Assembly: GCA_030639305.1 (NCBI GenBank) | Contig: DAOWCY010000010.1 | Location: forward strand, 2,773-66,772 | From: Candidatus Aminicenantes bacterium | GTDB taxonomy: Bacteria > Acidobacteriota > Aminicenantia > UBA2199 | DNA length: 64,000 nucleotides | Direction: 5' to 3' | In this document: one piece after another, positions 14,430 through 59,321 of the stretch | How the letters are laid out: each line of letters starts with the position of its first letter | Position numbering within the stretch: the first letter of the stretch is position 1 | Program-made: the position numbers and the translations under genes | The notes under the pieces: generated by a model | What the model saw: only the letters and a program-made list of their open reading frames with translations | Databases searched by the model: none | Told to the model about the DNA's origin: nothing

Positions 14430-14491
14430 ATTATAATTGGAAACCTATCTTATCTGCAATCAAAATAGTCCCGAAAGTGTTAAAAATAGTC
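14430..14491 (-). promoter_or_regulatory. Shared regulon promoter, copy A (direct repeats + TATAAT) upstream of the TPR-CHAT gene
   Basis: Minus strand: GACTATTTT-taacactttcgg-GACTATTTT-ga-TTGCAG-18 nt-TATAAT; half-sites 21 bp apart. Confidence 0.8.
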
Positions 14492-14645
14492 TTTTTCCGC
14501 CCCGGTTCCTCTATTTGCTGTAATCCCCGCATCTCGTAGCGCACGCACCTAGATTAGTCATAACGTGAAACCTTCCCCGACTGTCTACCCGGGCGGCCGT
14601 TCCCGGCATTCATTATTCATAATGCGGTTCTCTTAATCCTAAAGA

Positions 14646-14707
14646 GACTATTTTGTACAATTTTCGGACTATTTTTATCGCTTCACGGCACACATAGGGA
14701 TTATAAT
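14646..14707 (+). promoter_or_regulatory. Shared regulon promoter, copy B upstream of the Hsp70/tubulin gene run
   Basis: GACTATTTT (14646) and GACTATTTT (14667), TCGCTT, 18 nt, TATAAT (14702). Confidence 0.8.
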
Positions 14708-14809
14708 CGCACATGATGACTAAGATAAAAAAAATAAAAATTGCCGGGCAGTTCCAGGGGCAAAACATACGTTCGGTTTTAAGTTACAAAAAAAAGGAGA
14801 TAGATCAGG

Positions 14810-17659
14810 ATGATTAGATGCAGTAAATGCAATCAATGGGCAATCAAAGATACTGATGATTATTGCAGTTTCTGTGGATTTCTTCAACTGGATATTTCTG
14901 TTGAGCCACAGGATATAGTTCTTATATCCGGGATCGTGGCAGAGACAAAAATTACGTTTAGCAACAGCGGCGACAAAAACCACCACATAGAAATTTTGCA
15001 GGCAAAAGGTAATTTCAAGGGATTGGAATTTTCAGCATCAAATGCCTTCGCCCTGGACGCGGGAAGTCGCGAGGAGATTGGAATTCACTTAGTAGAAGAC
15101 CTACTTCCGGAGAATTTTACCACTGAAGAATTGGACTTTGTGTGCTTGATAGACAGCGACGAGCGTAAAACCATAAATTTTAAAGTTATTGTGAAAACAG
15201 GTCCAAAACCCGCAGTCCTGATCGATGAAATCAAATTCGGAGACGTGGAGGAAGAGAAGGAAATAGAAAGTTGGACGGAAATTGCCAATAAAGGAGGAAT
15301 TCCTCTAAAGATAAAAGATGTCCGGGTTATAGGCAGCAGCCAATTTAAAATAGAATCAGGGGATATCTTTAATCCTATTTTCCCAAACCGGAAGCTCAGG
15401 ATACCGGTAACCTGGAAATCACCTAAAGCCGAGTCTAACCACAAACGGGAACTCATAAAGATGAAAGTCGATTTTGAAAATTTCCCTGAAAGCTTATTTA
15501 TTCCAATCAAAGGGAGGTTGTTTAAGTATAATTTCCGGGCGGAACCGAACAAAATCCAGATCGATGAAGCCCTCTCAAAGCAGGTTTACTCGAAAAAAAT
15601 AACATTAATCAACGAAGGAACGAAAGATGTGGAAATCACCGCCATCGAACCGGACCGGGAGTGGATAAAAGCCGTAAGCAGGACAAAATCTTTTACGCTT
15701 TTATGTGAAGATTCGGTTTCAAAAAAAACCGCGGCGGATGCCACCGTTTTTGGTGGTAAATATACCTTCGAATTGGTCTTTTTTCCACAAAAATTAGAAG
15801 CTGGCTTGAATAAAGGAAAGGTTACGGTTTATACCACAAAAAAAGATTTCCAGGTTGGAATCGATATCCAGTTGTTTGTTATTTATCCGACCAATTGTAA
15901 CGATTACATCGGGATCGATTTCGGCACCACAAATTCCGTGGTTGCTATCTGGGATGATGAAGAGGCTGACCTTCGCCTGGTGGAGGATGAAAATCCCGTG
16001 ACCGGATCTCGAACCCCCTTGATTCCAAGCGTACTGGTTTTCCAGGGCCGGCCCGATAATTATAAAATCGGTACGGAAGCCGAATCGGAGGCCGATGTTT
16101 ACCCGGAAATGACCGTACGTTCTATAAAGCGGGTAATGGGATATGGAAACGACAGGGTTTTCTTCGAGCAAAATTTCTCGCCGGAAGACCTGGCTGCTCT
16201 TATTATAAAAAAGTTGATCGAGTTTGCTGAAGAACGCTTATACAGGCTTAATAAGGGGCGGACGAGCCCATATCTCGATATCAGGAAAGCGATTGTTACC
16301 GTACCCGCGAATTTTTATGATCTCCAGATAAGGGGTATTCTCACTGCCTGTGAAAAAGCCGGTATCGATATTGAAGAGAAACAGGCAAAAGAAGCCGCGG
16401 ACAAACTAAAAAAAGCGATCGGTCATGACATAAATGCCGGTATCATCCTCGACGAACCCTCAGCAGCCGCATTATTCTATCTCAGCAAGTTCCAGGAAGA
16501 AAACAAATTAGAAAATGAGTTTAACGAAAAGTTTTCAAAAAACAAAAATATCCACTTTCTTATTTTCGACTACGGCGGGGGTACGCTGGATGTTTCGGTG
16601 GTCCAGATCAACAAATTGGAAAATAAGAACATCGGTATTAAAGTCCTTGCCAATAAAGGAGACAACCTGATCGGTGGCGATAGTATCGATTTATCTATTA
16701 TGAAAGAGCTTTTAAAGATTTGCAAGAAATCCGTAAAAGGTTTCGATATCTCGCTGGTTTCCCAGAATTTCAATGAATTGGAGAAGAGACGTCAAACGGA
16801 AAATTGGAACCGGTTTATCTGGGCTGAAGTTCTACGTGTCCGTTCACAATGGAAAAATGCGGCGGAGAAAATAAAAATAGCTATAGATAAAAAAGAAAAA
16901 TTCGAATTCAAAATAAATAGTCGAAACGAGGAAATATTCAATATAAATGACGGAAAATTGCATTTCATAAAAGGGGAATTCAAAGTAATGATCACACGAG
17001 AACAGGTAATCGGTTGGATAAAAGGGCTTTTGGATAAATGTAAAAATGTAGTCGGTGAAGCGCTTTCACTTGCGGATATCGAAGCTGCCGATATCGATTA
17101 CATTATACACACCGGGCGTTCCAGCTTAATGCCTAATATCCAGCAGGACATTTCCACTCTTTTCCGGCATTTGAACGATGAACATGTGATCCTGGACAAA
17201 AAAAATTTAAAAATCTGTGTTGCCAAGGGAGCCGCCCTTTATGGTTTGCTGCGCTCCGGTATCCAGACGGAACATAATGTACGGCTGGTAAGTGGAGGGC
17301 GTCGGCTGCCCCACAGTTACGGAGTACAGGTAATGAGAATAACGAAACCGATGTTCGAGCCGATCATCGAAACCGGCACCAAGTATCCCACAGAAAAAAC
17401 CAAACATTATGATGATCCGGGCAGCCGATTCCTGACTTTACGATTTCTCCAAAATTCGAGTGTCAACAACAATATCAAAGGAAATCCCGATATTCGTGTC
17501 ATTGGAGCGATTACCGTGGATACCCTGGCCGATAATGTGCCGGGCTGTGATGTTAAATTCATGATCGACGCAAACCGGAAAATGGAAGTAAGCGCAGACG
17601 GCGTCCCCGTGCAAATTAAACCCGCCCGGTTGGAAGATGAAGACCGTTGGATAGGATAA
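14810..17659 (+). CDS. Hsp70/DnaK-family ATPase with N-terminal zinc ribbon and Ig-like (ASH/BACON-type) domains
   Basis: CSKC...CSFCG; Ig-like segments (ITFSNSG, EIANKGGIPLKI, ITLINEGTKDVEI); Hsp70 motifs GIDFGTTNS, IVTVPANF, LDEPSAAA, FDYGGGTLDVS, GGDSID, TGRSSLMP, VAKGAA. Confidence 0.9.
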   Translation: MIRCSKCNQWAIKDTDDYCSFCGFLQLDISVEPQDIVLISGIVAETKITFSNSGDKNHHIEILQAKGNFKGLEFSASNAFALDAGSREEIGIHLVEDLLPENFTTEELDFVCLIDSDERKTINFKVIVKTGPKPAVLIDEIKFGDVEEEKEIESWTEIANKGGIPLKIKDVRVIGSSQFKIESGDIFNPIFPNRKLRIPVTWKSPKAESNHKRELIKMKVDFENFPESLFIPIKGRLFKYNFRAEPNKIQIDEALSKQVYSKKITLINEGTKDVEITAIEPDREWIKAVSRTKSFTLLCEDSVSKKTAADATVFGGKYTFELVFFPQKLEAGLNKGKVTVYTTKKDFQVGIDIQLFVIYPTNCNDYIGIDFGTTNSVVAIWDDEEADLRLVEDENPVTGSRTPLIPSVLVFQGRPDNYKIGTEAESEADVYPEMTVRSIKRVMGYGNDRVFFEQNFSPEDLAALIIKKLIEFAEERLYRLNKGRTSPYLDIRKAIVTVPANFYDLQIRGILTACEKAGIDIEEKQAKEAADKLKKAIGHDINAGIILDEPSAAALFYLSKFQEENKLENEFNEKFSKNKNIHFLIFDYGGGTLDVSVVQINKLENKNIGIKVLANKGDNLIGGDSIDLSIMKELLKICKKSVKGFDISLVSQNFNELEKRRQTENWNRFIWAEVLRVRSQWKNAAEKIKIAIDKKEKFEFKINSRNEEIFNINDGKLHFIKGEFKVMITREQVIGWIKGLLDKCKNVVGEALSLADIEAADIDYIIHTGRSSLMPNIQQDISTLFRHLNDEHVILDKKNLKICVAKGAALYGLLRSGIQTEHNVRLVSGGRRLPHSYGVQVMRITKPMFEPIIETGTKYPTEKTKHYDDPGSRFLTLRFLQNSSVNNNIKGNPDIRVIGAITVDTLADNVPGCDVKFMIDANRKMEVSADGVPVQIKPARLEDEDRWIG

Positions 17660-17663
17660 AAAG

Positions 17664-19235
17664 ATGAGACCGCGCTTGATAATCGATTTTAGAGACCGCT
17701 GCTTATTTAGTCTTTTAATAGATGGGTCGGGTAATATTCGCACCTGCACCCACAATATCGGGGAGTATACGCTGAAATACTTCTTTGGAGAAATTTTCTT
17801 AGACCCGGATATTTATCTTAACATGAACGAAGAGAGGGCCCGTGATTTGTTTTCCAGGTTTAAAAACGGCACCCGTGACATCGTGCGCATAGGCCGGGAA
17901 AACGGCTGGCTGCGGCCGTACCGGGTGGCGCCGGGACAGGCTGCCCTACCTTTAAAGAACCCTTTGCATCTACTTTCTTCTCCCTATCTTTCCGATAGTG
18001 AATCGATAAACGGCTTAATTATCGGGGCATCGAGGATCATCCTGGAATTTTTATTGGAACCGGTCATAGGTTTTCTAAAAGAGAACGAATTTAGCCTAAA
18101 AGGAATCGATGTGACGGCCGCTGTCCCCAGTTATTTCAGTCGCCGTGCCCGGCTGATGCTGCACCTTGTGTTTCGGAAAGTAGGATTTAACAGGACCACG
18201 ATCGTATCGAGAGAGATAGCCGCGGCTATGACCTGTATCGAGAGTATCTCCACAGGCATTGTAAACATATTGGATATGGAGAATGAGGACACCCATTTAC
18301 ACCGGATAAAAATCGACAAATCGGGCAGTGCGGTGCAAATCGAGTGCCGCCGGAGTGAGACCATTCGCGGTGTAGGATGGCGGCCTATAACTACAAAACT
18401 GGGACACCTGCTTTTAAAGAAGAAAAAGATTAAAGAGCAGCCCGGGATTTACAGGGCACATATCGATAATGCTTTTATGGGATTAATTTTCGATGGAATT
18501 TCAACCGGCATTCCATCGAATCCGCCGCTGAAAGTAACAAGAAAACTGGTGGATGAATTATTGTTAAGAAACCCGGGAAAGAGGCTCCTGCAGCAGGACC
18601 CCTTTAAACGGCTGAAGGACTCGTTAGACCGGATTCAAAAAGAGAATGAAACGGTTATCCCGCTTGGAATGCCCTTTATGATAGGGGATATTGAAACGGT
18701 CATGCTGCCTGATTCTATTCCCGGTGGATTAGCTGGACTGCTGGCGCGCCGCCCCCTGGAAAGGACGGCTTATGGTCTTGCCTCAGGCTTCAGGTGGCTC
18801 AACCAAAATCCTGACCGGGAAATAAAAATAGGTGATAACTCGACCTTGCGACTGGTTACACAGCCGGGCAAGAGCGCAGCGCTTGCAGGTCCGCCATCCT
18901 TTCCCACAGCGCCCGGGGGCAGGCGAATCATCAAAAAAACATTCGACATTCACTTCGCTGAAGATGCAGCGGAAGACACTTTATATTTTAACCTGCAGTG
19001 GGGCGGCAGCGCGGATCCCGGGGCTAACATGAACCTATGCCTGCTCTCTTTGAACATAGACAGGGAAGAGGTAGAGAAAAACAAGAGGGTTTCGATTGTG
19101 CTGGAACTGCAAAAGGCCGGAACCGGGAAAAGTATACCGGGGCGTCTGACTGTAGAATTGGGCGCCAAACGTGAAACAGGAAAATTTGTGGTTATGCCCG
19201 GGATAACGGGAATCGGTTTTAAAGATATAAATTGA
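17664..19235 (+). CDS. Degenerate Hsp70/actin-fold protein (probable pseudo-ATPase)
   Basis: LIIDF, AAVPSYF...R....F.KVGF....IVSREIAAA and ILDM lie in Hsp70 order, but GT and GGGT phosphate-loop residues are absent. Confidence 0.6.
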   Translation: MRPRLIIDFRDRCLFSLLIDGSGNIRTCTHNIGEYTLKYFFGEIFLDPDIYLNMNEERARDLFSRFKNGTRDIVRIGRENGWLRPYRVAPGQAALPLKNPLHLLSSPYLSDSESINGLIIGASRIILEFLLEPVIGFLKENEFSLKGIDVTAAVPSYFSRRARLMLHLVFRKVGFNRTTIVSREIAAAMTCIESISTGIVNILDMENEDTHLHRIKIDKSGSAVQIECRRSETIRGVGWRPITTKLGHLLLKKKKIKEQPGIYRAHIDNAFMGLIFDGISTGIPSNPPLKVTRKLVDELLLRNPGKRLLQQDPFKRLKDSLDRIQKENETVIPLGMPFMIGDIETVMLPDSIPGGLAGLLARRPLERTAYGLASGFRWLNQNPDREIKIGDNSTLRLVTQPGKSAALAGPPSFPTAPGGRRIIKKTFDIHFAEDAAEDTLYFNLQWGGSADPGANMNLCLLSLNIDREEVEKNKRVSIVLELQKAGTGKSIPGRLTVELGAKRETGKFVVMPGITGIGFKDIN

Positions 19236-19254
19236 AATTAAAGGAGGATTTATC

Positions 19255-21204
19255 ATGATAAAGATAGGTCGTTTTCGTTACACAGCAAAGGAGGTAGAAA
19301 TGTTTATAAAGAAAAGTATAGTCCTGTTTGTTGGAGTACTGGTTTTCTTTGGCGCATCGCCGGGAGTGACAAACCAGGAGGAGAAAATACCCGGTGATTT
19401 TTTCCAAAAGCTTAAAACACTGGCGGACACAAAAAAGGAAGACAAAGATTACGGAGAGCTTTTTACCGAACTGCTCACAGACGAGGCACAATTAGGAAAA
19501 AACATCAAAGCGGGCGGAACTATAGAAGCTGAATGGATAAAGAGCGCCGGGGAAACCGGTGGTTATATTGGGGAAATTTTGCTGAAGCATCTGGGTGAAC
19601 CGGAAGATCTCGGCACCATCGCACAATTTTTAACGAAACTCAGGGAAGCACTAACAAAAGCGAACTATGTTACTGTGGGGTGCGATATATACAATGCAGT
19701 TATAGAGGTTATAGACAATGCATCTCCACAAGAGGAAGCGTCCCGGGATTTTTTCGAGAACGCCGGGTTAATGAAGAAACTCGAAGAAACCGAAAAAAAA
19801 CTGGTCTTCGACAGGTTAGCGGAATTCACCGGAATAGTATCCGCTTACCGGGATCACCTGGTCCGGGAACAGCTTATGGAGAAAAAGATAAAGAGTGAAC
19901 TGGAGAAAAGACAGGAAGAATGGCACGGAAAAATGAAAACAGCAGTGAACAATACCGGCATGCAGCTAAAAGAGAGTTTATATAAGAAATTTTTGTATAT
20001 CGGGTTATTATTCCTGTTCCTGGTGGCGCTAAACCTATTCTACATACTCTTCTTTATAAAACGAAGGATGGTAAAGAAAAAGTTAGACCAATTCGGGTCT
20101 GAAATCGAGGGTATCAGGAATACTTTAAAGAGAGAGAGTAATGGTTTCCAAAAGAAAGAAATCTACAGCGATCAAATTTTCTTATCAAGTTATTTGAAGG
20201 AGGATGGTTCAATGGTGAATCCAAACGAATTGCCGGGTACTCTTGACGGACATCTGAAACAGTTCAGGGCCATGGTGAATGAAAGACTCATAGGAATCGA
20301 AAGTGATTTGAAAAAGATTAAGCAAGAATACCCGGGTAGAAAAATCGGTGAGAAAAATGGGATCGAACGAAGAATTCAAGGCATCGAAGAACAATTGCGG
20401 CGCATAAATCACTTCCTGGATGCCGGGCGGGTGTCTCCGTCTCCCGGGGAAATGTCGCTGGCCGGTTTGATCGAATCCATCCCGGGAAAAGTTACCGAAG
20501 AAATCGCGGATGCTGAACGGGAAGTTTTAAAAGAGACCTGGAACTGGGAAACCTTTAAAACGATCAGGGTAAAATCAGCGATGTTCTCCGAAAGCGGAAA
20601 GAATAACGAGTTTTTCGACCTTTGTTATGAAATGGAAAAGAGACTCACTTTCAATGAGGATTTTTTATTATCTTATAAGAACACGGTTAGCTCCCTGCGA
20701 AACTATGATGAGATACTGACAAATATCGTTAATATCCCTAAAATAACCGGCGCCGCCCCGGGGCCTCGCTTAAAAGGCCCTACTCCCGGGAAAGACCTGC
20801 AAATAATCAGGCGGCACATCTATTTCCTTATATCTCTTCAAAGCACGGACATCCTCTCCAACCTGCCGGATTTCACCATTGAAAAATGGGTCAAAGAAGA
20901 GTTTCTGGAATTTACCGATCAATTTATGAGATATTATCAACGCAGTGTTTTCGAAGGGAAAGAAACCGGGCAATTGGAAGAAGTTAAAAGGTTAATCGAT
21001 AAAATTTTAGTCTTTGTCAATATCGAAGTCATCCCCCTGGAATTAGGCAAAACACTATTTGACAGTACGCTTCATATCGGGCGTTCCCATACCCGCGAAG
21101 CCTCGATGTATGACGGAACGGTGGCCGATGTGGTACGAAGCGGTTATAGAGAGATTAACGGGGTTGTTATCCAGCAGCCGGAAGTAATTGTCAACCGGTT
21201 GTAG
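19255..21204 (+). CDS. Signal peptide + TM + coiled coil + C-terminal GrpE-like domain
   Basis: C-terminus IPLELGKTLFDSTLH...DGTVADVVRSGY...GVVIQQPEVIV matches the GrpE head pattern. TM FLYIGLLFLFLVALNLFYILFFI. An alternative start at 19300 has its own AGGAGG RBS. Confidence 0.75.
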   Translation: MIKIGRFRYTAKEVEMFIKKSIVLFVGVLVFFGASPGVTNQEEKIPGDFFQKLKTLADTKKEDKDYGELFTELLTDEAQLGKNIKAGGTIEAEWIKSAGETGGYIGEILLKHLGEPEDLGTIAQFLTKLREALTKANYVTVGCDIYNAVIEVIDNASPQEEASRDFFENAGLMKKLEETEKKLVFDRLAEFTGIVSAYRDHLVREQLMEKKIKSELEKRQEEWHGKMKTAVNNTGMQLKESLYKKFLYIGLLFLFLVALNLFYILFFIKRRMVKKKLDQFGSEIEGIRNTLKRESNGFQKKEIYSDQIFLSSYLKEDGSMVNPNELPGTLDGHLKQFRAMVNERLIGIESDLKKIKQEYPGRKIGEKNGIERRIQGIEEQLRRINHFLDAGRVSPSPGEMSLAGLIESIPGKVTEEIADAEREVLKETWNWETFKTIRVKSAMFSESGKNNEFFDLCYEMEKRLTFNEDFLLSYKNTVSSLRNYDEILTNIVNIPKITGAAPGPRLKGPTPGKDLQIIRRHIYFLISLQSTDILSNLPDFTIEKWVKEEFLEFTDQFMRYYQRSVFEGKETGQLEEVKRLIDKILVFVNIEVIPLELGKTLFDSTLHIGRSHTREASMYDGTVADVVRSGYREINGVVIQQPEVIVNRL

Positions 21205-21223
21205 GAATACCGGGAAGGGCATC

Positions 21224-21970
21224 ATGCAAGACTTATCCAGCGAAGATATCTTAAAGCTGAAGGAAATATTCTTCGGCGAACCGCGCCAGCCGCAGACCGC
21301 CTGGTTACTGCCGGTGCAGGAACCCATTATCGATATTTGCGGTAAGGGTATACGAAGAGAAGACGATTCATTTTTCCTGGATATAGGTTCGATCCCGGTC
21401 ATGGAAACCGCAAACGAATCGGTATATGTAGCGAATCTTACCCAGCAGTCCCTGTTGGTATGGGTGGATGAAGTTGACGAACACATTTCCGCCCAATGGG
21501 AAAACAATACCACGGAGGCATTTATAGCGCAAGGCGGAGTGCAAAACAGGCTTGATTTAAGTTTTTACGACGATGCTTCCGGGGAGCGGGATTTCTCGAA
21601 AAAAATTAATATAAGCGCCGAAATGGAAACCGGTATAAGAAAGGAATTCTACCTGTTTTTTACAGGAAAAAGCGTCGTGACTCCCCCCCCGGAAGAAAAC
21701 GGAAAAGATGACACCGACGATATCGAACTCCCGGAAAAGCCCGGCGAAAGCGAAGATCTGCCGGCCGGAAAAGCATGTTTCCGCTGCCATATGGTTTCAT
21801 GCCTGGAAATACCCTACTGTTCGCTTTGCGGGTATGACATCCGGGAAGCGCCGCCGGTTCCGGGGGCGGAAGTGATGACCTGTCAAGCCTGCGGGCGTGA
21901 GTATACATCCTCTATAGGATATTGCCCCGATGATGGGAAACCCTTAGTAAAAAAAATTTTAGGAGGTTGA
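21224..21970 (+). CDS. Double zinc-ribbon protein with N-terminal beta-rich domain
   Basis: CFRC...CSLCG and CQACG...CPDDGKPL. Start placed at ATG 21224, after the upstream stop. Confidence 0.75.
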   Translation: MQDLSSEDILKLKEIFFGEPRQPQTAWLLPVQEPIIDICGKGIRREDDSFFLDIGSIPVMETANESVYVANLTQQSLLVWVDEVDEHISAQWENNTTEAFIAQGGVQNRLDLSFYDDASGERDFSKKINISAEMETGIRKEFYLFFTGKSVVTPPPEENGKDDTDDIELPEKPGESEDLPAGKACFRCHMVSCLEIPYCSLCGYDIREAPPVPGAEVMTCQACGREYTSSIGYCPDDGKPLVKKILGG

Positions 21971-23298: not shown

Positions 23299-23311
23299 AA
23301 AATAATGAAAC

Positions 23312-25147: not shown

Positions 25148-25178
25148 AAAATATAAAAATCCAAGGAGGAAAAATAAA

Positions 25179-25640: not shown

Positions 25641-25669
25641 ATCCTGTAGAGGATTAAGGAGAAAGTATT

Positions 25670-29875: not shown

Positions 29876-29908
29876 GCCAGCGATCATTTATTTAATTAGG
29901 AGGTAAAT

Positions 29909-31836: not shown

Positions 31837-31875
31837 ACCCGGGCCCGGGCGAATGAATAAAAAAAAGGGAAACAA

Positions 31876-35423: not shown

Positions 35424-35429
35424 AAAAGA

Positions 35430-38471: not shown

Positions 38472-38520
38472 TAATCTTTCCCTCCAGGAGGTACGAACCC
38501 GGTTACCCAAGGATTTAAAT

Positions 38521-42885: not shown

Positions 42886-42895
42886 GGAGACAAAC

Positions 42896-44810: not shown

Positions 44811-44848
44811 TTGACAACACCGGGCAGGACGTGGTAAAATAACCTTAA
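44811..44848 (+). promoter_or_regulatory. Sigma70 promoter giving a probable leaderless XRE transcript
   Basis: TTGACA (44811)-18 nt-TAAAAT (44835) with TG extension; ATG 7 nt downstream and no RBS. Confidence 0.65.
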
Positions 44849-45315
44849 TGAGATATAAACGAAGATATAGACAAAGACGAAAACCTTTAGATACAAAGCC
44901 GGTTGCCGCCCGGCTGCGCCAGGTGCGCAGGCATTTCGGTTACAGCCAGGATGAAATGGCCGCTGTATTGGGAATCACCAAAGACACCTACGGCAAAAAC
45001 GAAAGAGGCTACCACCTGCCCTCAACCGAGAGTCTCGCCGCCATATACGACAAATTAGGCATCAATATAGAATGGCTGCTTTTTAACCGGGACGCCATGT
45101 CCTGGAAAGAACCCGGGAACCGGCAGGGTGTACATGAAGATATTCCGGGGGAACTTCCTTTTTTTGCGGAAGCGACAGAGATGGTGGATTTGATGAAACG
45201 TATTCCTTTTTTGCGTCATGCGGTTTTGGGTTTTTTCCAGAGATTCAAAATCGAAAACGAGCGCCTGATCCGCCGCTTTTTAGAAAAGGAAGCAGAAACC
45301 GGCGCTACCGGCTGA
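44848..45315 (+). CDS. XRE-family HTH transcriptional regulator
   Basis: RLRQVRRHFGYSQDEMAAVLGITKDTYGKNERGYHLPS...LGINIEWLL. Confidence 0.92.
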   Translation: MRYKRRYRQRRKPLDTKPVAARLRQVRRHFGYSQDEMAAVLGITKDTYGKNERGYHLPSTESLAAIYDKLGINIEWLLFNRDAMSWKEPGNRQGVHEDIPGELPFFAEATEMVDLMKRIPFLRHAVLGFFQRFKIENERLIRRFLEKEAETGATG

Positions 45316-45326
45316 GGGGATAAGGA
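45216..45326 (+). repeat. Direct repeat, left copy (3' end of the XRE gene plus downstream RBS)
   Basis: Ungapped 111-bp match to 51538..51648, about 11 mismatches by eye. Confidence 0.9.
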
Positions 45327-45334
45327 GGAAAAAC

Positions 45335-49660: not shown

Positions 49661-49688
49661 ATTATGATAAGAATACGGAGGGCATACC

Positions 49689-50516: not shown

Positions 50517-50548
50517 CCCGGGATGTCAATGCATGGATTTTAGGAGAT

Positions 50549-51292: not shown

Positions 51293-51537
51293 CAGATACA
51301 ATTGGAGCAATAAAGTTAAATAATACAAATAAAAATTATGGAATTTTCAAAAGTGTTATAAAAGAAACTCAGGTTGGAATTTATCTCCTGATGTTGTGGA
51401 GGAAATCGAACAATTATCGAGGGATCGCTTTGGAATTCTCCCCCTTTATTATACATTTGCCTTGGATACTATAATATTTGCTCCCACCATCAAGACGATT
51501 ATCCTGAACCCGGAAGTGTGAAAAATATTCTATTTAC

Positions 51538-51648
51538 TCACGTGGTTTTGGGTTATTACCAGGGATTCAAAATCGAAAATGAGCACCTGATTCACCGCTT
51601 TTTAGAAAAGGAAGCAGAAACCGACGCTACCGGCTGAGGGGGTAAGGA
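51538..51648 (+). repeat. Direct repeat, right copy (orphan XRE 3'-end fragment)
   Basis: Encodes HVVLGYYQGFKIENEHLIHRFLEKEAETDATG*, versus HAVLGFFQRFKIENERLIRRFLEKEAETGATG* in the intact XRE gene. Confidence 0.9.
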
Positions 51649-51722
51649 AACAATGATTGCCCGGTTGCAGGGAAAGAATCGGATTTAGAAAATATATCCT
51701 TAACGCTTAATCCTCCAAAATA

Positions 51723-51783
51723 GACTATTTTGTACAAAATCAGGATTATATTTATCGCGCCCCTGCTTAAGGCCGATTATAAT
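51723..51783 (+). promoter_or_regulatory. Shared regulon promoter, copy C
   Basis: GACTATTTT (51723), GATTATATT (51744), TCGCGC, 17 nt, TATAAT (51778). Confidence 0.75.
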
Positions 51784-51910
51784 GGCAGCAGATCGTTTGA
51801 CATGTAACAAGCTGGAAAATGCGGTTTACAGGTTGTAGACCGCAGCCGGTACGCTGACTGCTGCCGGTTCCAGGTTAAATGACCGTAAAAAAATGAACAG
51901 GAGGTTTAAT

Positions 51911-52156
51911 ATGTCTTACCAGTACAAAATGCTCCAGGTGCCTCAGATAATTAAAATTAAAGCAAAAGATTATCAAGGCGGAGAAGCCGCCGCTTACCTG
52001 GAACAAATCGTCACCCAGGAAGCCCGTGAGGGCTGGGAATTCTACCGGGTAGATACCATCGGTGTTTATAGCCAGGCAGGCTGCATTGCTTCTTTATTCG
52101 GCAGCAAGGACGAACTATCCGAGTATTATGTGGTTACGTTCCGAAAAGAAAAATAA
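51911..52156 (+). CDS. DUF4177-like small protein
   Basis: YQYKM...YLEQIV....REGWEFYRVD...YVVTFRK; AGGAGG RBS before ATG 51911. Confidence 0.7.
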   Translation: MSYQYKMLQVPQIIKIKAKDYQGGEAAAYLEQIVTQEAREGWEFYRVDTIGVYSQAGCIASLFGSKDELSEYYVVTFRKEK

Positions 52157-52370
52157 TCCCGGCTTTCTCAGCGGGTTAAGTTTTCGTTTTATCAGGGGCT
52201 ATCAAAAGATAGCCCCGCGGCGCATCAGGAAGGCCTGCCGGTTCACGCCAACCTGCTCTGAGTATGCAATCGCGGCAATAACAAAGTACGGATTTCTAAC
52301 AGGGTGGCAAAAAACTTTTCAGCGTTTAAATCGATGCCGCCCGCCTCACAGCGGCATCGATTTTCCCTAA
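52128..52370 (+). CDS. yidD: YidD-like (membrane protein insertion efficiency factor / haemolytic domain) protein
   Basis: IRGYQ...CRFTPTCSEYAIAAITKYG...G......RLNRCRP...GIDFP. Overlaps the upstream ORF; probably a paralog, since rpmH/rnpA/yidC are absent here. Confidence 0.8.
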   Translation: MWLRSEKKNNPGFLSGLSFRFIRGYQKIAPRRIRKACRFTPTCSEYAIAAITKYGFLTGWQKTFQRLNRCRPPHSGIDFP

Positions 52371-52528
52371 TTTCCATTAGCGTCCCAATCCGTGACAGGA
52401 CATTTCGAAAACCATTGAATATTTTCATCAAACCGGCAGCATACCGGAAGAAATCTTTGGAGCAAAGCAAAAAGCAGTATCATGCACCGCTCATAAGATT
52501 CACTACCCCGTTCGTTTATTTCTAAAGA

Positions 52529-52589
52529 GACGATTTTTAACAATTTTTAGACTATTTTTATTGCATGCAATTCATTAATGCAATATAAT
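52529..52589 (+). promoter_or_regulatory. Shared regulon promoter, copy D
   Basis: GACGATTTT (52529), GACTATTTT (52550), TTGCAT, 17 nt, TATAAT (52584). Confidence 0.8.
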
Positions 52590-52708
52590 CCCGGTAGACC
52601 TTTCGATAAAAGGTAAAAAATGGCACATAGAACAAGTATTAATATGTTGGCCGGCTTCTGGCCGGGAGAGCCAAAAAAAAGAAATCCCTTTCAGCAGGAG
52701 GTTTTCCC

Positions 52709-54439
52709 ATGAAAGAAAAAAAAGGCAGTCTCAATGCCGTTATCGTGGGCGTAGACGGCTATAAAGACGCACCGCCACTCCAATGCGCCGTCAACGATGC
52801 CGTCTATCTAACCGAAACGCTGCAAAAAGTATGGCAAAACCGGGGTACTCATATCAAAACCCTGGTCTGGCCTTCCTTGAACCAGGAAAAAACCAGGGCA
52901 CAGCGGGTGACATGGGGCATCGATTTACCCCCAAACGCCTGCCCGGTTACCCGGGAAGGCCTGCTGTCGGCAGTGCGCGAAAGCGCGGGTAAAACCGGGG
53001 AAACGGACACTTTTATTTTCTTTTTTGCCGGTCATGGTGAACTGGTGGATGCGGAACCGGCCCTAATCACGGTGGCCGAAGGCGAAACAGCGGAAGGAAT
53101 CGAAAAAATCAAAATAAAAGAGATACAACAGGCTGCCGCCGGCTGCCCGGCCCGGAACAAAATAATGATATTGGATTGCTGCCAAACGTCGCCCGGTAGA
53201 AAAAAAAGCAAACAAGAAGAAAAATACAAAAACCTGGGAGAATTAACAAAAGGCTGGTCGATATTTCTCTCCTCCAGTCCCGGAGAAAGCTCATTAGAAG
53301 ACCGGTATTTTGGGAACAGCAGTGACGATTACCTACAGCAGGGTATATTCACTGCCAGTTTGGCGGTGGGGCTGCGCGGTGAAGCAGCGGGCGGCAGCAG
53401 GTACATCAGCCTGGCTGATCTGGCATATTATGTGGGAAAACGGGTTCCCATAGAATACCAGGAACGGCTGGAGGCAATAATGCTTAGAGAGGCCGGAACA
53501 GGTAAAGCCCCCCCGGGGCAACCTGAAACCAGGGGAACAGGTTCATTATCGCAAAGCCCGGTACTATTGAGCGAAGCCGTGGCCATGAACGGCCCATACA
53601 AAATAACGATGGCCCCGGAAATCATACCCGCTTGCCAGGACTCACGAACAAAAACACCCGGCAAAAATTTTATAAAAAACTGGTTCAAATTCCTGTGGGG
53701 ACAGTGGCCTATCGTATTTCCTTTTAAAACGGTATTTCGTTTGGCATCCCTGCTGTACGCCGCGGCCATGACGCTAACCGTAATCTGGCATTCCCCGGCG
53801 GAAACAAACGATACCTTAGTGATATTTTATGGTGCGGTGGGCCTGGGCAGCGTACTGATCTGGTGGCTTACGCTCCCCTTCGCAGCCGCGGCAAATGAAG
53901 AGCGCTGGCATTCCGGGGGGTATGTAACTCTTCTTTTCTATTTACTCTGGCATTGTCTTGTGGCCCTGGTTTTTGCCTGGCTGTGCGGCGTTGTACCCAT
54001 CACTAACCGGGAATCCAACCGGTTTATTTTCTTAGTAACGGATCTTTTTTTCATATTGGCAGGAATAGTTATTTTCGCCATCAACACCAGTCAAACTATT
54101 ATTTCCCTGGCGGAAACCGTCAGGCCGGATGAGAGAAGAGAAATTCGGCAGGCTATCCGGGTTTTCGAACAGTTTAAAAGCAAAATGGTAGGAGTGGATT
54201 TGTATAACTATGTGGCGGCGGTTTCAGTTAGGCCGAACCTATATATATATGGTTGGATTGTTTCGGCAGCCGTCATCGGGTTCAATATTTATCAAGTGCT
54301 TGCCACGGTGGATATCGTAACAGTATACTTGTGGACATTTTTAGTGCGCAATATTTTCCTTTTGGTGCTGGTAACCTGGTTGGTTTTCTGGTATCATGCC
54401 GCATTTAAGACTATCCAAAAGGAGGTCTATAAACGATAG
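52709..54439 (+). CDS. Caspase-family (peptidase C14) protein with C-terminal multi-pass membrane domain
   Basis: AVIVGVDGY...LQCAVNDA, FFFAGHG (His), ILDCCQ (Cys), GIFTASL; about 6 hydrophobic helices at the C-terminus. Confidence 0.9.
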   Translation: MKEKKGSLNAVIVGVDGYKDAPPLQCAVNDAVYLTETLQKVWQNRGTHIKTLVWPSLNQEKTRAQRVTWGIDLPPNACPVTREGLLSAVRESAGKTGETDTFIFFFAGHGELVDAEPALITVAEGETAEGIEKIKIKEIQQAAAGCPARNKIMILDCCQTSPGRKKSKQEEKYKNLGELTKGWSIFLSSSPGESSLEDRYFGNSSDDYLQQGIFTASLAVGLRGEAAGGSRYISLADLAYYVGKRVPIEYQERLEAIMLREAGTGKAPPGQPETRGTGSLSQSPVLLSEAVAMNGPYKITMAPEIIPACQDSRTKTPGKNFIKNWFKFLWGQWPIVFPFKTVFRLASLLYAAAMTLTVIWHSPAETNDTLVIFYGAVGLGSVLIWWLTLPFAAAANEERWHSGGYVTLLFYLLWHCLVALVFAWLCGVVPITNRESNRFIFLVTDLFFILAGIVIFAINTSQTIISLAETVRPDERREIRQAIRVFEQFKSKMVGVDLYNYVAAVSVRPNLYIYGWIVSAAVIGFNIYQVLATVDIVTVYLWTFLVRNIFLLVLVTWLVFWYHAAFKTIQKEVYKR

Positions 54440-54467
54440 AGGGAAAGCAAAAAAATAAGGAGAAAAT

Positions 54468-55559
54468 ATGACACAGCGAAGAATTTCACCACACGAATTA
54501 GAAGTCGAAGAATTGGATAAAGAACTAATCAGGCGAGGGGCGCAAGTTGCCGGAGAAAAGCGTTTTATGTTCAGCGACAAGGAAGGCACCCCGCAGCGGG
54601 ACGCGGTAGTGAGCGGTGCCGGAAAAATATACGAACACACTCCCCCACCCAATGAAGCGTTGGCCTATATCAGCACCTGGGATCTGGCCAGGATTATTAA
54701 AATTAAGACCTCTACCCATTCCCTAACCTGCGTCCGCGGTTCCGGGTATGCGGACCTGATGGATTGGTACGAGATCGGCCCCGGTCCGGGTGACGGTTGG
54801 GAAAAGATAAAGCAAAACGCCGGCTGCACGGCTGCCGTCTGCTTCCGGGACCAATTGATAGATACCGGGCAGGGGGCTTTTATCCTGAATGTCAAAAATT
54901 ACGGCAAAACCTTTAACCTGTGCCAGATCGAACCTTTCCGCCATCAACCTATCGCAGCGGGGAAAATGTGCAGCGGTTTCCTGGTCGAAGACGATGTGAT
55001 CGCCACCGCAGGTCACGTTATTAACGAAAACAATGTGACAGACTTGCGTTTTATTTTCGGTTTTGCCATGATGGATTCGGTCACGCCGGTGACGAAGTTC
55101 CCCCGGGCCGATATGTACCGGGGCGTCAAAATTATCCACCGCCTACCCGGCCCGGGCAAAGCCGGTGAAGAAGACATGGTGCTGGTGCGGTTAGACTGCA
55201 AAGTGGCAGGCAGAGCGGCGGCTGAACTTTCTAAGCAAGAGATTTCTAAAGATCAAGCGGTTTATGTGACCGGTTATCCATTAGGGCTGCCGCTGAAATA
55301 TGACGGCGGAGGAACAGTGCAAACCGTGCATGGTAACCATTTTACCGCCGGCCTGAATGTGTATGGCAGCAGCCCCGGATCGCCGGTTTTCGACTGGGAC
55401 AGCCACGAAGTCACCGGCATAGTAGGAAAATCCGGGCAGATGAATTTCAGGTGGACGGGGAAAGGTTGGATGTCGGTAATTTACCCCGGCAGCCGGGGAA
55501 GCGAAAGCGGAGGAGTCTTTTGCCACGGGGTTTCCAAATTGGTCGAAATGATAGATTAA
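54468..55559 (+). CDS. Trypsin-like peptidase homolog with apparent Ser-to-Pro change at the nucleophile
   Basis: CSGFLV...ATAGHV (His), EDMVLVRLD (Asp), TGYPLGLPLK; YGSSPGSPV replaces the usual YGGNSGSPV. Confidence 0.8.
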   Translation: MTQRRISPHELEVEELDKELIRRGAQVAGEKRFMFSDKEGTPQRDAVVSGAGKIYEHTPPPNEALAYISTWDLARIIKIKTSTHSLTCVRGSGYADLMDWYEIGPGPGDGWEKIKQNAGCTAAVCFRDQLIDTGQGAFILNVKNYGKTFNLCQIEPFRHQPIAAGKMCSGFLVEDDVIATAGHVINENNVTDLRFIFGFAMMDSVTPVTKFPRADMYRGVKIIHRLPGPGKAGEEDMVLVRLDCKVAGRAAAELSKQEISKDQAVYVTGYPLGLPLKYDGGGTVQTVHGNHFTAGLNVYGSSPGSPVFDWDSHEVTGIVGKSGQMNFRWTGKGWMSVIYPGSRGSESGGVFCHGVSKLVEMID

Positions 55560-55619
55560 CAGCAGCCCCATACGCACGGGGAGGCGATAAGTTGCTTCGC
55601 GTCAGGCAAAAATGAGAGC

Positions 55620-55658
55620 TCCGGGTGGGGATCACCGGCAGAGTTCCCCTCACCCGGA
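55620..55658. terminator. Hairpin between convergent genes (possible terminator)
   Basis: tccgggtgggga ... tcccctcacccgga stem with a small bulge. Confidence 0.4.
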
Positions 55659-55711
55659 AACGAGTGAAATTACCCCCGGCAAGGGCAGCGGGTGAGCGCT
55701 TTTGATTCTAA

Positions 55712-55774
55712 CTTATCAAAAGTTTTGATCAAACTTTTTCAAAAGTTTGGCTCCCGGCAGGGCCGCCGGAGGCA
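55712..55774. repeat. REP-like palindromic intergenic element
   Basis: Nested palindromes aaaagttt-ttgatc-aaactttt and aaactttttcaaaagttt, followed by a GC-rich end ggccgccggaggca. Single copy in this window. Confidence 0.4.
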
Positions 55775-55800
55775 AAGTAATTTCATAGTAGTATGAAAGG

Positions 55801-58800
55801 CTATTTCGTTAAGGCTTCGCGGGCCGCTTTTAGATTCCGGGTTACATCAGCCACAACCGGATGCTCCTCTCCATAAATCTTCTTGCATAGGGTTAGGGCC
55901 TGCTCATAATACTCTACAGCTTTTCGATACTCTTTTCTACCGAAACACAAGGCCCCCAGGTTCTGCAAAACCACGGCTTCACCGGGATCCGCGCCCTTTT
56001 GGGACGCCCCGTAAATCGACAGCGCTTGCTCAAAATGAGACCGGGCTTTTTCGGTTTCTCCCAGGTCATCCCATGCCGCCGCCAGGCTGCTCAATATATG
56101 GGCTATTCTTGTGTGCTTCTCGCCATAGATTTTCTTCCAGGACTCCAGTACCTTTTCATAATATTCGATGCCTTTCTCCGGCTCGCCTAATGCGCTCCAG
56201 GCAGCGCCCAGGTTATGCAGCACCGTTCCCACTATATTCAAGGGAGGGCCGTCTTCCCCTGCCCCGCCATCGCGACTTCCAACCCCGCGAATCTCAACAT
56301 CGCGACTCTTACCGGGAGACGCCCCGATATTGTCCAACGCTTGTTCGTATAACTCGATGGCGTTTCGATGATCGCCCTCTATGCTGCGAATTAGGCCCAG
56401 GTTATGCAGGTCCCTGCCCACATCCGCATGTTTGTCCCCATGCAGCGAACGGTCCACGGCAAGCGCCTTATCGAGATATTCGGAGGCGGCGGCGTAATCG
56501 CCCGTTTCTTTCATGGTTAAGGCGGTTTCATTCAAAAGAAAAGTATCCGGAGCCGTAGATAACTCCCGCTTCTTTTTATCCAATTCTTCCAGCACCCACA
56601 AACCCACTCGCTTCGATTCATCGAGCGCAAGATGTTCCCGGTGATGCTTCACCAACATGCCGCCCGACTTAAGGGCGTCATCATATTTTTCGCTTTCCAG
56701 GTAATGGTAGGTCATTTCCTCGGCATCGACAACATAAACAGATGCTTTAGATGCGGATTTATGCTTGTAATACAGCAGGGCGGCTTCGTGACAGGCGTGG
56801 GTTTCTTCTTTAAGACCGGCCAGCAATCTCTCCTGCAGCAGTGGGGTGCCACGGTATGCCCGGCGCGCCTGGTCATACTCGATCAGACTCAACCGCAAAC
56901 CTTGTTCTAATAATTCCCGCCAACTTTTCACCCCGGCTTGTTCCGCTATAAGCTCCACACCTTCCCGGGACACGAAAAGACGGAAAACACTCATCCAACT
57001 CAACAACCGCTTTAAAGCGGCGCCGCCGCTTGCCAACAATTCTTCCAATACTTGCTCAGCGATGAATTTCTCTTGTTCGCCGACGATGGCAGCCGATAAA
57101 TCCATTTTTTCCACGGTTCCCACTTTTCCCAACATTTCGTCGAGCCTTTCCATTAAAAGAGGATTGCCCCGGCCTTCCGCGGCTAACCGTAAGTTGGGGA
57201 AACGGTATGAATACTGCAATATATTCTCCAATTCCCGCTCTTTTTTACGCTGTTCAGGCTCCCGGAAACCGGTGAGATAAACGGGTTGAAGTTTTTCCTG
57301 TATTAGGTCGCGGCCCCGCTGGGTGAGGGAAAAAGAGTAACGGCTGGTAATAATTATCTGCGTCATTTTACCGCCCAGGGGCAGGAAATGAAGCAGCGCC
57401 TCTAATAAACCGGCGGCCTGGGGCGTCAATAGGCCGGGCTGCCCCGCCTGCGCCCCTTCAAGGTTAAACTCGAAATCATCCAAAAGCAGCAGGTAGTTAT
57501 TTTCTTTAAAGCTGGTGGCGCACAGGTCGGCCAACCGGTCTTCCATCTCCCCTTTCCGATCAAGTATTTCCCTGCCTTTTTCATCCTGGGCGGCCACAAA
57601 AGCATCGGTTAATGCGGATTTCAGCGAGACGTTGTCCAATTTGCCCTGTACCACGACCAATTTATGGTCCGTGAACCGCTCGCAGATCTTACCGGCCAGG
57701 CAGCTTTTACCCGAGCCGCCGCTGCCCAAGAGCAGCACCCCGGTTTTATCGAAATTCCGCCTCAGAGCCTGTAAACTCATCTGCAGCTGCCGCCTCCTGC
57801 CGACAAATCCTTGTTCCAGCACTTTTACCGGCCCCAAATAGGTGTGTGTCATGCGCCTAAGCTGGGGCCGGCGGGGCTGGCCTTTCTTTACCATGCCGCC
57901 TATAGACATGCCGCCGGCGAATAACCGCAGTAAGGGCCAGGCGTGACCGGGACTGTCCGCGAACTTCTGCGCCAATTCATACCGCGCCCGCTGGACAGCT
58001 TCGAGTATGCTTTTGCCCCGGCTCAGTTCATGATAGATCATTTTCTCAGCTTGCGTGGCCTGTTGGTCGCTGACCGGACGTCCCCAGCCCAACACCGCGG
58101 GCACATGGTGTTTTTCCACCATGTGCCGGGCAAAAGAAATAGCCGCTTTGGGGTCCGGGGTCTGCCCGGTGCGGCAGCCCGATAAAAACAACAACCGGGG
58201 GGGATTTTCGATCAGGGCTTTATCCCACAAACGGTTGGGGAATACATCGTCACGGTGGCCGGTTTCATTCTCCATGATGAAAAAAGGGGTTTCCTTTTCT
58301 CTGCCGTGGTGTAAATGTTTGCGGTAAGGATAAGTCGCTTCCCCTGGCCCAGCGCTTTTGGAAATTCCTTCCTTAGAGTGTGAGGCCCCCGCTCTCTTAA
58401 TACCGGCGTGCCCCGATAGGTGCACCACATCATACTGCTGCTGCTCCAGTTTTCCCTTCAGCCCCGTTAAAGAACCGGAGTCCTCCACTTCCATTTCCAC
58501 GGCCAATTTTTCCGTCACCTGGAATATGGACTCCTCCTCCTTTTCGAAATTCAGCTCCGGTTCCACATCGATGGCTGAACTGGCCATGAACAATAAACGC
58601 ATCGGCCGGTCTTCGGGGGAAACCGGGTTGTCTATGCCCCAATCAGATACGTATCGAATGAGATGAATCCGCCGCTGCAGCAAAAACTCGCCCTTTCGAG
58701 CCAAAAGTTCAAAGGGCCAGTCGGCTGCCGCCGGGCATGTGAGCAGGTGGAGCCGCAGCGCTCCACCGCGCCTCCCGGCTTTATCCAAAGCCCGCTTCAA

Positions 58801-59016
58801 GTGGCGGGCGTCGCCGTCTAAAAAACGAAACAACAACTCGCCCACACCTGTTTGATGAGCAGGATGTTCCCAGGAGGATTCCACTTCCCGGGCTGTAATT
58901 TCCCCTGCCGGCTGTTCGAAACTATCTTCGCTTTCGGCCTCCACGTCGTACCAGGTGACCTGGAAACGATCCTCTTGCCCCGTGGGGCTAACGGTTACTT
59001 TCGCAGTATAAGACAT
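55801..59016 (-). CDS. CHAT protease - P-loop NTPase (STAND-like) - TPR protein
   Basis: CHAT VHLSGHA/LFLSGCRT; FVGRRR; Walker A GSGGSGKS; Walker B LLLLDDFE; GNPL; kinesin-light-chain-type TPRs (LHNLG...YGEKHT). Confidence 0.92.
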   Translation of the reverse strand: MSYTAKVTVSPTGQEDRFQVTWYDVEAESEDSFEQPAGEITAREVESSWEHPAHQTGVGELLFRFLDGDARHLKRALDKAGRRGGALRLHLLTCPAAADWPFELLARKGEFLLQRRIHLIRYVSDWGIDNPVSPEDRPMRLLFMASSAIDVEPELNFEKEEESIFQVTEKLAVEMEVEDSGSLTGLKGKLEQQQYDVVHLSGHAGIKRAGASHSKEGISKSAGPGEATYPYRKHLHHGREKETPFFIMENETGHRDDVFPNRLWDKALIENPPRLLFLSGCRTGQTPDPKAAISFARHMVEKHHVPAVLGWGRPVSDQQATQAEKMIYHELSRGKSILEAVQRARYELAQKFADSPGHAWPLLRLFAGGMSIGGMVKKGQPRRPQLRRMTHTYLGPVKVLEQGFVGRRRQLQMSLQALRRNFDKTGVLLLGSGGSGKSCLAGKICERFTDHKLVVVQGKLDNVSLKSALTDAFVAAQDEKGREILDRKGEMEDRLADLCATSFKENNYLLLLDDFEFNLEGAQAGQPGLLTPQAAGLLEALLHFLPLGGKMTQIIITSRYSFSLTQRGRDLIQEKLQPVYLTGFREPEQRKKERELENILQYSYRFPNLRLAAEGRGNPLLMERLDEMLGKVGTVEKMDLSAAIVGEQEKFIAEQVLEELLASGGAALKRLLSWMSVFRLFVSREGVELIAEQAGVKSWRELLEQGLRLSLIEYDQARRAYRGTPLLQERLLAGLKEETHACHEAALLYYKHKSASKASVYVVDAEEMTYHYLESEKYDDALKSGGMLVKHHREHLALDESKRVGLWVLEELDKKKRELSTAPDTFLLNETALTMKETGDYAAASEYLDKALAVDRSLHGDKHADVGRDLHNLGLIRSIEGDHRNAIELYEQALDNIGASPGKSRDVEIRGVGSRDGGAGEDGPPLNIVGTVLHNLGAAWSALGEPEKGIEYYEKVLESWKKIYGEKHTRIAHILSSLAAAWDDLGETEKARSHFEQALSIYGASQKGADPGEAVVLQNLGALCFGRKEYRKAVEYYEQALTLCKKIYGEEHPVVADVTRNLKAAREALTK

Positions 59017-59260
59017 TTTTTTTCTCCTAAATTAGTCTACCATAATCAGGGCCCGCGGAGCGGTTTATACCATTTCCACGTGGTGGCCCCGCACCCCACC
59101 GCCGCCGCATCCGGCAGCGGTGGAGATTGCCCCCCCACCTTTCTCTCCTATTATATCCCCGGTGTGCCTTAAAAATCGAGGCCGCCTACACATCATAACT
59201 GCCCAAAATTCTTACCTTACAGGTATCTTGCCGTAATGATTCCCGGCATGTTTCGCCCTC

Positions 59261-59321
59261 ATTATAACCGGCAAGCTGCCGGGATGCGATAAAAATAGTC
59301 TCAAAATCGGTAAAAATCGTC
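59261..59321 (-). promoter_or_regulatory. Shared regulon promoter, copy E
   Basis: Minus strand: GACGATTTT-taccgattttga-GACTATTTT-ta-TCGCAT-17 nt-TATAAT. Confidence 0.8.

Follow-up and report, generated by a model that had tools for sequence, protein, structure and literature searches.

To our knowledge, conflict systems built from CHAT, caspase and STAND proteins, and those built from Hsp70, GTPases and tubulin, are known from comparative genomics only, and we know of no one who can say when they are produced or what triggers their production. This question is raised by a stretch of 64,000 nucleotides, hereafter called the window, in which an island of such genes contains five copies of one promoter element and the gene of a hybrid two-component system regulator (HTCS, a single polypeptide). 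The window corresponds to C341:2773-66772 in the assembly, labelled G000, of an uncultured sediment bacterium of the Aminicenantes lineage (7.59 Mb, 427 contigs, 45.7 % G+C, 90.5 % complete). An earlier note on this DNA had proposed that the five promoters constitute an AraC-type regulon under the control of the HTCS encoded at 59401-63651. The follow-up was wholly in silico, with domains called from Pfam. The regulon signature is real, conserved and tightly bounded. Comparative evidence supports a regulon of AraC type, but its extent differs from that proposed, with eight promoters in two loci rather than five in one. With a probability of roughly 0.6, these eight sites act as sigma-70-type promoters that need an activator and together make up the regulon of the HTCS at 59401-63651. 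The island would most likely represent an HTCS-type operator and regulator deployed over cell-death-like conflict islands.

The promoter element and its distribution

The five sites proposed earlier were all found, on the strands given for them, and are listed here together with the HTCS gene (lengths of proteins in amino acids, aa; scores from the weight matrix described below).

14430-14491, minus strand: promoter/operator 1, with TTGC and TATAAT; 51.8 bits; predicted to drive a CHAT gene (984 aa) and the minus-strand CHAT/TIR run
14646-14707, plus strand: promoter/operator 2, divergent from 1; 54.4 bits; predicted to drive the run of Hsp70-like, GrpE-like, tubulin-like, trypsin and FGE genes
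51723-51783, plus strand: promoter/operator 3; 47.9 bits; predicted to drive an 81-aa open reading frame (ORF) and a YidD-like ORF
52529-52589, plus strand: promoter/operator 4; 53.2 bits; predicted to drive genes for a caspase-domain protein (576 aa) and a trypsin-like protein (363 aa)
59261-59321, minus strand: promoter/operator 5; 52.6 bits; predicted to drive a CHAT-AAA-TPR gene (1071 aa) via a 244-nt leader
59401-63651, minus strand: HTCS (1416 aa), with Reg_prop propellers, Y_Y_Y, HisKA, HATPase_c, receiver and AraC-type helix-turn-helix (HTH)

In this design, two GACKATTTT half-sites spaced by exactly 21 bp precede a weak -35 and TAnAAT. The spacing of the half-sites is exactly 21 bp in all five window sites, each of which has T[TC]GC 2-3 nt downstream of the proximal half-site and a perfect TATAAT 17-18 nt past T[TC]GC (5/5 for each feature, as had been claimed). 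The pattern GAYKATWTT-N12-GAYKATWTT matched five times in the window and in none of 100 dinucleotide-preserving shuffles of it, so that the enrichment over background on which the earlier proposal depended was borne out. Every site also faces a downstream gene with a GGAGG-type ribosome-binding site and a gene start (5/5), the distance from the -10 to the ATG being 22 nt (ATG at 14408), 102 nt (14810), 127 nt (51911), 119 nt (52709) and 244 nt (59016). The arrangement is that of a class II promoter, the proximal half-site abutting a weak -35 ahead of an intact -10, with positions relative to the start being predicted ones.

In class II activation by AraC at I1-I2 of araBAD and by XylS at Pm, direct half-sites likewise lie 21 bp apart, the proximal one touches a weak -35, and the DNA is contacted through a double HTH. 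The G000 promoters resemble these systems in half-site spacing, in the proximal site at a weak -35 and in the AraC-type DNA-binding domain of the candidate regulator. They differ in that this regulator would be a membrane-anchored kinase-receiver fusion under phosphorylation rather than a soluble ligand-binding dimer, and, unlike for AraC, no distal looping site was seen at the promoters in G000.

Over the whole of G000 the regular expression matched eight times, seven times with TATAAT at the fixed distance and once (contig C39) without it. A weight matrix trained on these seven sites gave 41 positions above 12 bits in 7.59 Mb; the top eight scored 35.2-54.4 bits and the ninth 19.3 bits, and this drop therefore delimits a sharply bounded family of eight. 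Seven of the eight are training sites and match by construction, whereas C82:11009 (35.2 bits) lies outside the training set and is an independent eighth site. Five promoters are located in the window and three on contig C82, and the half-sites are exactly 21 bp apart in all eight. Spacer and leader are common to the promoters at window 51723, C82:11009 and C82:14933, which indicates that these three arose by duplication.

The same pattern, with at most one mismatch, was found in three of 41 related genomes including G000, which represent three genera of one family (eight sites in G000, five in G004 and two in G010), while the reversed pattern used as control was absent from all 41. Five sites are present in another genome of this family, listed under both labels G041 and G046 and hereafter called G041. 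The full design thus occurs at 20 sites in four genomes, 12 of them in the three relatives of G000, and the motif is kept across four genera; the scans of genome and relatives that the earlier note had called for were in this respect positive. TAnAAT stands at the same distance in all seven G004 and G010 sites, the spacers of which are unrelated, and a Shine-Dalgarno sequence and ATG are visible for six of the seven. The genes downstream of sites in the relatives resemble in kind those of G000. They encode CHAT and CHAT-STAND proteins, a PPC-domain protein and two very large proteins without a Pfam match, and a recurring cassette encodes a trypsin-like protease together with proteins of 111 aa and 131 aa.

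When one genome per species was scanned over about 185,000 species, 41 stretches matched, but only six had an in-register -10, and all six came from these relatives (three from G004, one from G010, two from G041). The others comprised ten stretches from Omnitrophota, four from Saccharibacteria-type genomes, three from one Prevotellaceae metagenome-assembled genome and scattered AT-rich single matches. The ten Omnitrophota genomes (L037, L043, L045, L047, L051, L059, L065, L066, L068 and L072) share a pair of GGATTATTTTTATTT-type repeats at 21-bp spacing, followed after just 5 nt by TATAAT, and conserved downstream sequence; this is a different architecture from that of the conflict-island promoters. 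On the three Prevotellaceae contigs (L038, L062, L067), a 21-bp unit whose core is of GATTATTTTTATCTC type is repeated in long tandem arrays.

Past the -10 of many such promoters, at 3-6 nt, there is a CAGATCGTTTGAC-like stretch, even where the upstream half-sites differ. It is found at 51784-51830 of the window and at 11070-11110 and 14994-15040 of the C82 locus (L001), and also past the -10 beside the HTCS genes G000:C87, G001:C229, G010:C16, G004:C115 and G041:C123. Possible roles are those of a 5' RNA element or of a second operator placed where transcription starts. In neither the window nor C82:1-20000 did the leaders match an Rfam family at gathering score, and a regular expression for the shared leader was too loose (177 matches, mostly coding, none usable). 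A mobile repeat like a miniature inverted-repeat transposable element (MITE) or a repetitive extragenic palindrome (REP) was rejected as the source of the motif, only the half-sites and the -10 being conserved. An exact 9-of-9 scan for promoters with a 21-bp repeat gave 16 loci. Three G000 sites on the minus strand, C353:4072, C62:13922 and C66:48973, have two direct repeats with 21-bp spacing, of CGATTTGTT and GAGACAAT type, and an in-register -10, C353 and C62 having the same spacer; no regulator was identified near these three look-alike promoters, whose contexts were uninformative.

The HTCS and its proposed operator

Promoter 5 lies 80 nt beyond the stop codon of the HTCS gene. The encoded protein has Reg_prop, Y_Y_Y, HisKA, HATPase_c, Response_reg and HTH_18/HTH_AraC matches in this order, those to HisKA, HATPase_c, the receiver and HTH_18 being complete. 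Hydrophobic segments near residues 30-46 and 795-815, an H-box histidine and the receiver aspartate motif were recognised by eye. The domain order and the two hydrophobic segments suggest that the signal would be extracellular. In its account of HTCS operators, the paper of Ravcheev et al. (2013; PMC3878776) predicts operators for 16 HTCSs of Bacteroides thetaiotaomicron, all of which are direct repeats with a non-conserved spacer and an average of 21 bp between sites and lie beside the regulator gene. To the extent of that account, the present system is similar in its periplasmic COG3292-type sensor, kinase, receiver and AraC HTH, in its two direct-repeat sites about 21 bp apart, centre to centre, with a non-conserved spacer, in the position of the regulator gene beside its targets, and in having related paralogs with related motifs.

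A search with the whole protein returned a much-expanded family with many paralogs of 44-57 % identity, and the presence or absence of the whole HTCS across genomes is therefore uninformative. The order of HTCS and promoter, in contrast, is seen again in six other genomes from three genera, where the HTCSs closest in the AraC domain are each followed within about 100 nt by this repeat or a degenerate form of it. For the best whole-protein match, G010:C30 (57 % identity overall and 67 % in its AraC domain), a site lies about 100 nt past the end of the gene, and the same is true of G041:C123 (67 % in the AraC domain). A GACTATAT-type variant, spaced at 21 bp and with TACAAT, comes after G023:C49 (66 %) and G045:C568 (64 %). 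G001:C229 (62 %, from the genus of the window) is followed by a pair with a degenerate distal half-site, and G050:C618 (65 %) by a pair with a degenerate proximal half-site. Seven HTCSs, belonging to one clade or its nearest matches, are thus each followed by the motif. A regulator gene lies beside the targets in G000, G010 and G041, and beside variants of the site in G023, G045, G001 and G050, but not in G004. Eleven HTCS-type AraC domains were found in G000, and among them that of the window HTCS is the sole member of the clade associated with GACTAT-type repeats.

The 3' flanks of 42 HTCS genes (11 from G000, 30 from G001, G004, G010 and G016, and that of G010:C30) were compared with 2585 flanks of other long ORFs in G000, a repeat being counted at 10 or more of 12 matching bases; two 23-bp matches after the HTCS paralogs C7 and C33 are hairpin repeats and were left out of the counts. 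A 21-bp direct repeat was present in 10/42 HTCS flanks and 237/2585 background flanks (binomial tail 0.004), and a repeat with an in-register -10-like hexamer in 9/42 and 77/2585, respectively (binomial tail 3e-6); both tails overstate the evidence, since relatedness among the HTCS flanks makes them non-independent. Half-sites vary from one paralog to another: GATTCGATTTT stands after both G000:C387 and the corresponding G001 gene, TTTTACCAT after G000:C32, GGTACGATTTT after G010:C16, TTTGCAAC-type half-sites after G010:C3 and G004:C115, and still others after G010:C49 and G001:C143.

In a maximum-likelihood tree of 37 AraC domains (108 columns), all five included HTCSs with GACTAT-type repeats fell into one clade (support 93/93), together with G010:C16, the half-site of which deviates at one or two positions, and with the repeat-less G016:C76, G004:C75 and G004:C7. 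The two genes with TTTGCAAC-type half-sites form a clade (96/94), and so does the GATTCGATTTT pair (99/94). In the first recognition helix, all nine members of the GACTAT clade have LF[KR]K, the sister clade has [LV]NRK, and [IL]YRK stands in the other sequences shown. A glutamate/lysine switch is located in the following helix. The half-site type tracks the AraC-domain tree and the recognition-helix residues. This covariation of operator and AraC domain, though indirect, is the strongest argument for assigning the sites to the HTCS; together with the synteny in six genomes and the position of the window HTCS as sole clade member in G000, it supports the regulator named in the earlier note.

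A different arrangement was seen at G048:C86 (L152), where a 21-bp unit with a core of GTAGGAATA type is repeated head to tail at least five times about 230-330 nt past the HTCS AraC domain, forming an array and not a half-site pair.

Mechanism and competing explanations

In the proposed mechanism, the periplasmic propeller/Y_Y_Y domain would bind a ligand and the kinase would phosphorylate the receiver domain of its own polypeptide. Two AraC-type domains would occupy the direct-repeat half-sites (GACKATTTT with a few flanking bases), centred at about -60 and -39 from the presumed transcription start, and the proximal copy, abutting the weak -35 (TTGC or TCGC), would recruit RNA polymerase in the class II manner. 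CHAT, caspase, trypsin-like, STAND NTPase, TIR and Hsp70-GrpE-GTPase/tubulin genes in two islands would then be switched on jointly. Binding, activation as opposed to repression, the transcription starts, the nature of the signal and the membrane topology are predictions of this scheme.

Several observations weigh against control by the HTCS, and some of them would fit a true regulon with a different binder, such as a soluble AraC protein, the XRE protein encoded at 44848-45315 or an unrecognised protein, the HTCS being merely a neighbour in the island; we consider this rather unlikely. In G004 none of the five sites adjoins an HTCS gene, and directly after one of them stands the gene of a stand-alone 134-aa AraC protein, a possible binder with 29 % identity to the HTCS domain; homologues of it are encoded in G000 on C62, C149, C34, C202 and C385 (31-39 % identity). 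No repeat was found in the 3' flanks of the G004 clade members C75 and C7, of G050:C927 (67 %) or of G016:C76, which has the recognition residues of the clade although no site was found in G016 at one mismatch or less. No 21-bp repeat follows 32 of the 42 HTCS genes, some inner forks of the tree are weak, the AraC-domain identity of presumed counterparts is just 62-68 % with orthology that is not one-to-one, and control by the HTCS would require a protein anchored in the membrane to act at eight promoters spread over two or more loci. A different binder, however, would leave unexplained both the private 21-bp repeats that track the AraC-domain tree and the presence of the motif after seven clade or near-clade HTCSs, and neither the small AraC nor the XRE gene lies beside sites in the other genomes examined.

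That there is no common regulator at all, the sites being duplicated promoter DNA, a mobile promoter module or phased T-tracts whose curvature boosts a constitutive promoter, appears very improbable. The shared spacer and leader of three promoters do attest to duplication, and the half-sites are T-rich and two helical turns apart. The remaining sites, however, keep GAC and the T-run amid unrelated spacers and leaders, and the motif has been conserved across four genera. Curvature alone would not account for a fixed-position GAC or for half-sites specific to each paralog, and the copies number just eight, all ahead of one functional gene class. Direct repeats of 9 bp with a 12-bp spacer are also the classic layout of LytTR sites, as for AgrA and ComE, and the 9 + 12 + 9 base geometry found here would fit a response regulator of that type. 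It was nevertheless rejected and retains next to no credibility, as no LytTR domain was found among 11 candidates scored in G000 (90.5 % complete), none was found in G016, and the LytTR genes of G004 and G010 are on contigs without sites.

The stand-alone AraC gene of G004 (C7; L019 13682-14086) is the first gene after a GACTATTTT promoter and stands ahead of trypsin and CHAT-AAA genes. Its product may be a second-tier regulator.

Genes under the promoters and their significance

All eight promoters precede conflict-type genes, encoding either CHAT, caspase, trypsin and STAND proteins or Hsp70-GrpE-GTPase/tubulin systems. In the window the predicted targets are as follows, with one further promoter-like site.

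3-14408, minus strand: target run of promoter 1; CHAT (984 aa), CHAT (1529 aa), two CHAT-TIR proteins, a CHAT-fascin-like protein, a 259-aa unknown protein and a TPR protein
14810-44404, plus strand: target run of promoter 2; Hsp70-like (949 aa), GrpE-like (649 aa), Tubulin_2 (1401 aa), trypsin (279 aa), two FGE-sulfatase-domain proteins, a TonB-dependent receptor, STAND-WD40 (1454 aa) and eight ORFs without a Pfam match
44811-44840, plus strand: sigma-70-like site, TTGACA-18-TAAAAT with extended -10 TG; a consensus match only
52709-55559, plus strand: targets of promoter 4; caspase (576 aa) and trypsin-like protein (363 aa)
55801-59016, minus strand: target of promoter 5; CHAT-AAA_16/nSTAND-TPR protein (1071 aa)

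The labels previously given to these genes held in part. Pfam confirmed the caspase domain and the trypsin-like protein after promoter 4 and the CHAT-NTPase-TPR composition after promoter 5. In the DUF4177-YidD pair after promoter 3, YidD was confirmed but DUF4177 was not, the 81-aa ORF having no Pfam match. In the TPR-CHAT label after promoter 1, CHAT was confirmed but TPR was not found in the two large CHAT proteins; a separate TPR protein ends the run and extends past the window edge. The operon extent of this run (3-14408) is suggested by gene spacing alone. The 30-kb run proposed after promoter 2 does contain the Hsp70 and tubulin genes, although transcription from promoter 2 may cover less than the 30 kb. 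Past 44404 there is a gap of 444 nt, and the sigma-70-like site lies 8 nt ahead of the XRE gene at 44848-45315, which is followed by genes for a CHAT-NACHT-deacetylase and two acetolactate decarboxylases. Because of the gap and the promoter-like site, the stretch from 44848 need not belong to the regulon, and its genes may have their own promoter.

Contig C82 carries an island paralogous to that of the window, with three promoters. Two form a divergent pair, one arm of which encodes a 120-aa protein, a trypsin-like protein (358 aa) and a 186-aa protein, and the other a CHAT-TPR protein (1051 aa) with 46 % identity to the 1071-aa protein of the window. The third promoter precedes genes for GrpE, Hsp70, Hsp70-vWA, FN3/zinc-ribbon, DO-GTPase-like, GAP1-N2 and DO-GTPase-like proteins, the match to GAP1-N2 being strong (2.7e-39) and those to DO-GTPase1/2 weak and below the Pfam cut-off. 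Kaur et al. (2020; PMC7159879) describe GAP1-N2/DO-GTPase systems with Hsp70-GrpE or tubulin and conflict systems with peptidase cascades. Judged by its predicted gene content, the third C82 operon is a GTPase-centric Hsp70-GrpE system of the kind described there, in that GrpE, Hsp70, Hsp70-vWA, FN3/zinc-ribbon, GAP1-N2 and, below cut-off, DO-GTPase are found together. The window shares with the systems of that description its Hsp70-like, GrpE-like, Tubulin_2, trypsin, caspase, CHAT, TIR, STAND-WD40 and FGE-sulfatase proteins. In the run at 14810-44404, Hsp70, Tubulin_2 and (below cut-off) a GrpE-like protein are present, whereas GAP1 and DO-GTPase had no Pfam match there, and five of its ORFs were searched without any family being found. 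The words promoter, two-component and AraC are absent from the main text of PMC7159879, and the systems as described in it differ from the present ones, for which a shared transcriptional control by a sensor kinase is proposed.

A trypsin-like protease encoded together with a 111-120-aa and a 131-138-aa protein forms a conserved cassette that occurs under these promoters in five genomes (L001 8420-10587, which is G000:C82; L024 10106-11992; L020 10672-11918; L064 2420-4043; L145 192-2081). Neither small protein has a Pfam family, and the idea that the 111-120-aa proteins are hidden AraC proteins was rejected, as they are unlike the 134-aa AraC and form a family of their own.

The proposed targets are also what sets this HTCS apart from those of Bacteroides, which the account in PMC3878776 calls unique to Bacteroidetes and ties to polysaccharide loci. 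Compared with that account, the present targets are conflict genes instead of polysaccharide loci with susC/susD, the bacterium belongs to the Aminicenantes, the core promoter is of TATAAT type with a Shine-Dalgarno sequence, and the regulon extends over two islands. The regulon targets include one TonB-dependent receptor, and no Pfam match to a glycoside hydrolase or SusD was found among them; they do not constitute a polysaccharide-utilisation locus. What is new is the cargo of the HTCS operator, conflict islands rather than glycan loci, and the lineage; in the literature searched, no paper was found that links an HTCS to CHAT proteins or to Aminicenantes.

Other HTCS paralogs of the lineage likewise avoid sugar loci. 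G004:C115 stands ahead of a cassette for a 114-aa protein, trypsin, a 138-aa protein and CHAT, which it appears to drive, and the HTCS gene of G000:C87 lies among genes of the 131 family and a caspase gene. The sister-clade HTCSs G000:C387 (L138 184-5034), C32 (L139 182-385) and C411 (L143 2075-3622) are followed by a gene for a peptide of 67-74 aa with a conserved N-terminal region. A radical-SAM/SPASM enzyme is encoded next in C387 and C411, and then, in C387, a propeller/Y_Y_Y-SpoIIE phosphatase sensor. The peptide and radical-SAM genes may form a peptide-maturation cassette under HTCS control. As sister HTCSs would drive such cassettes beside propeller sensors, a modified peptide could be a ligand. 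It is conceivable, although distinctly unlikely, that the expanded HTCS family consists of plug-in sensor and private-promoter cassettes wiring periplasmic signals, possibly alarm or quorum peptides, to apoptosis-like immune islands, and that a peptide modified under one HTCS could induce the caspase/CHAT/Hsp70-tubulin regulon in neighbouring cells, resulting in induction at the level of the population.

If the HTCS does control the eight promoters, HTCS regulators would extend beyond glycan catabolism and beyond Bacteroidetes. Eight promoters, one candidate regulator and a 9-bp half-site would then provide an experimental handle for study in a surrogate host, and the covariation of half-site and recognition helix over the paralogs constitutes a small natural data set on the DNA specificity of AraC domains. 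For the bacterium itself, it would mean that the conflict islands are induced from outside the cell and are not kept constantly ready.

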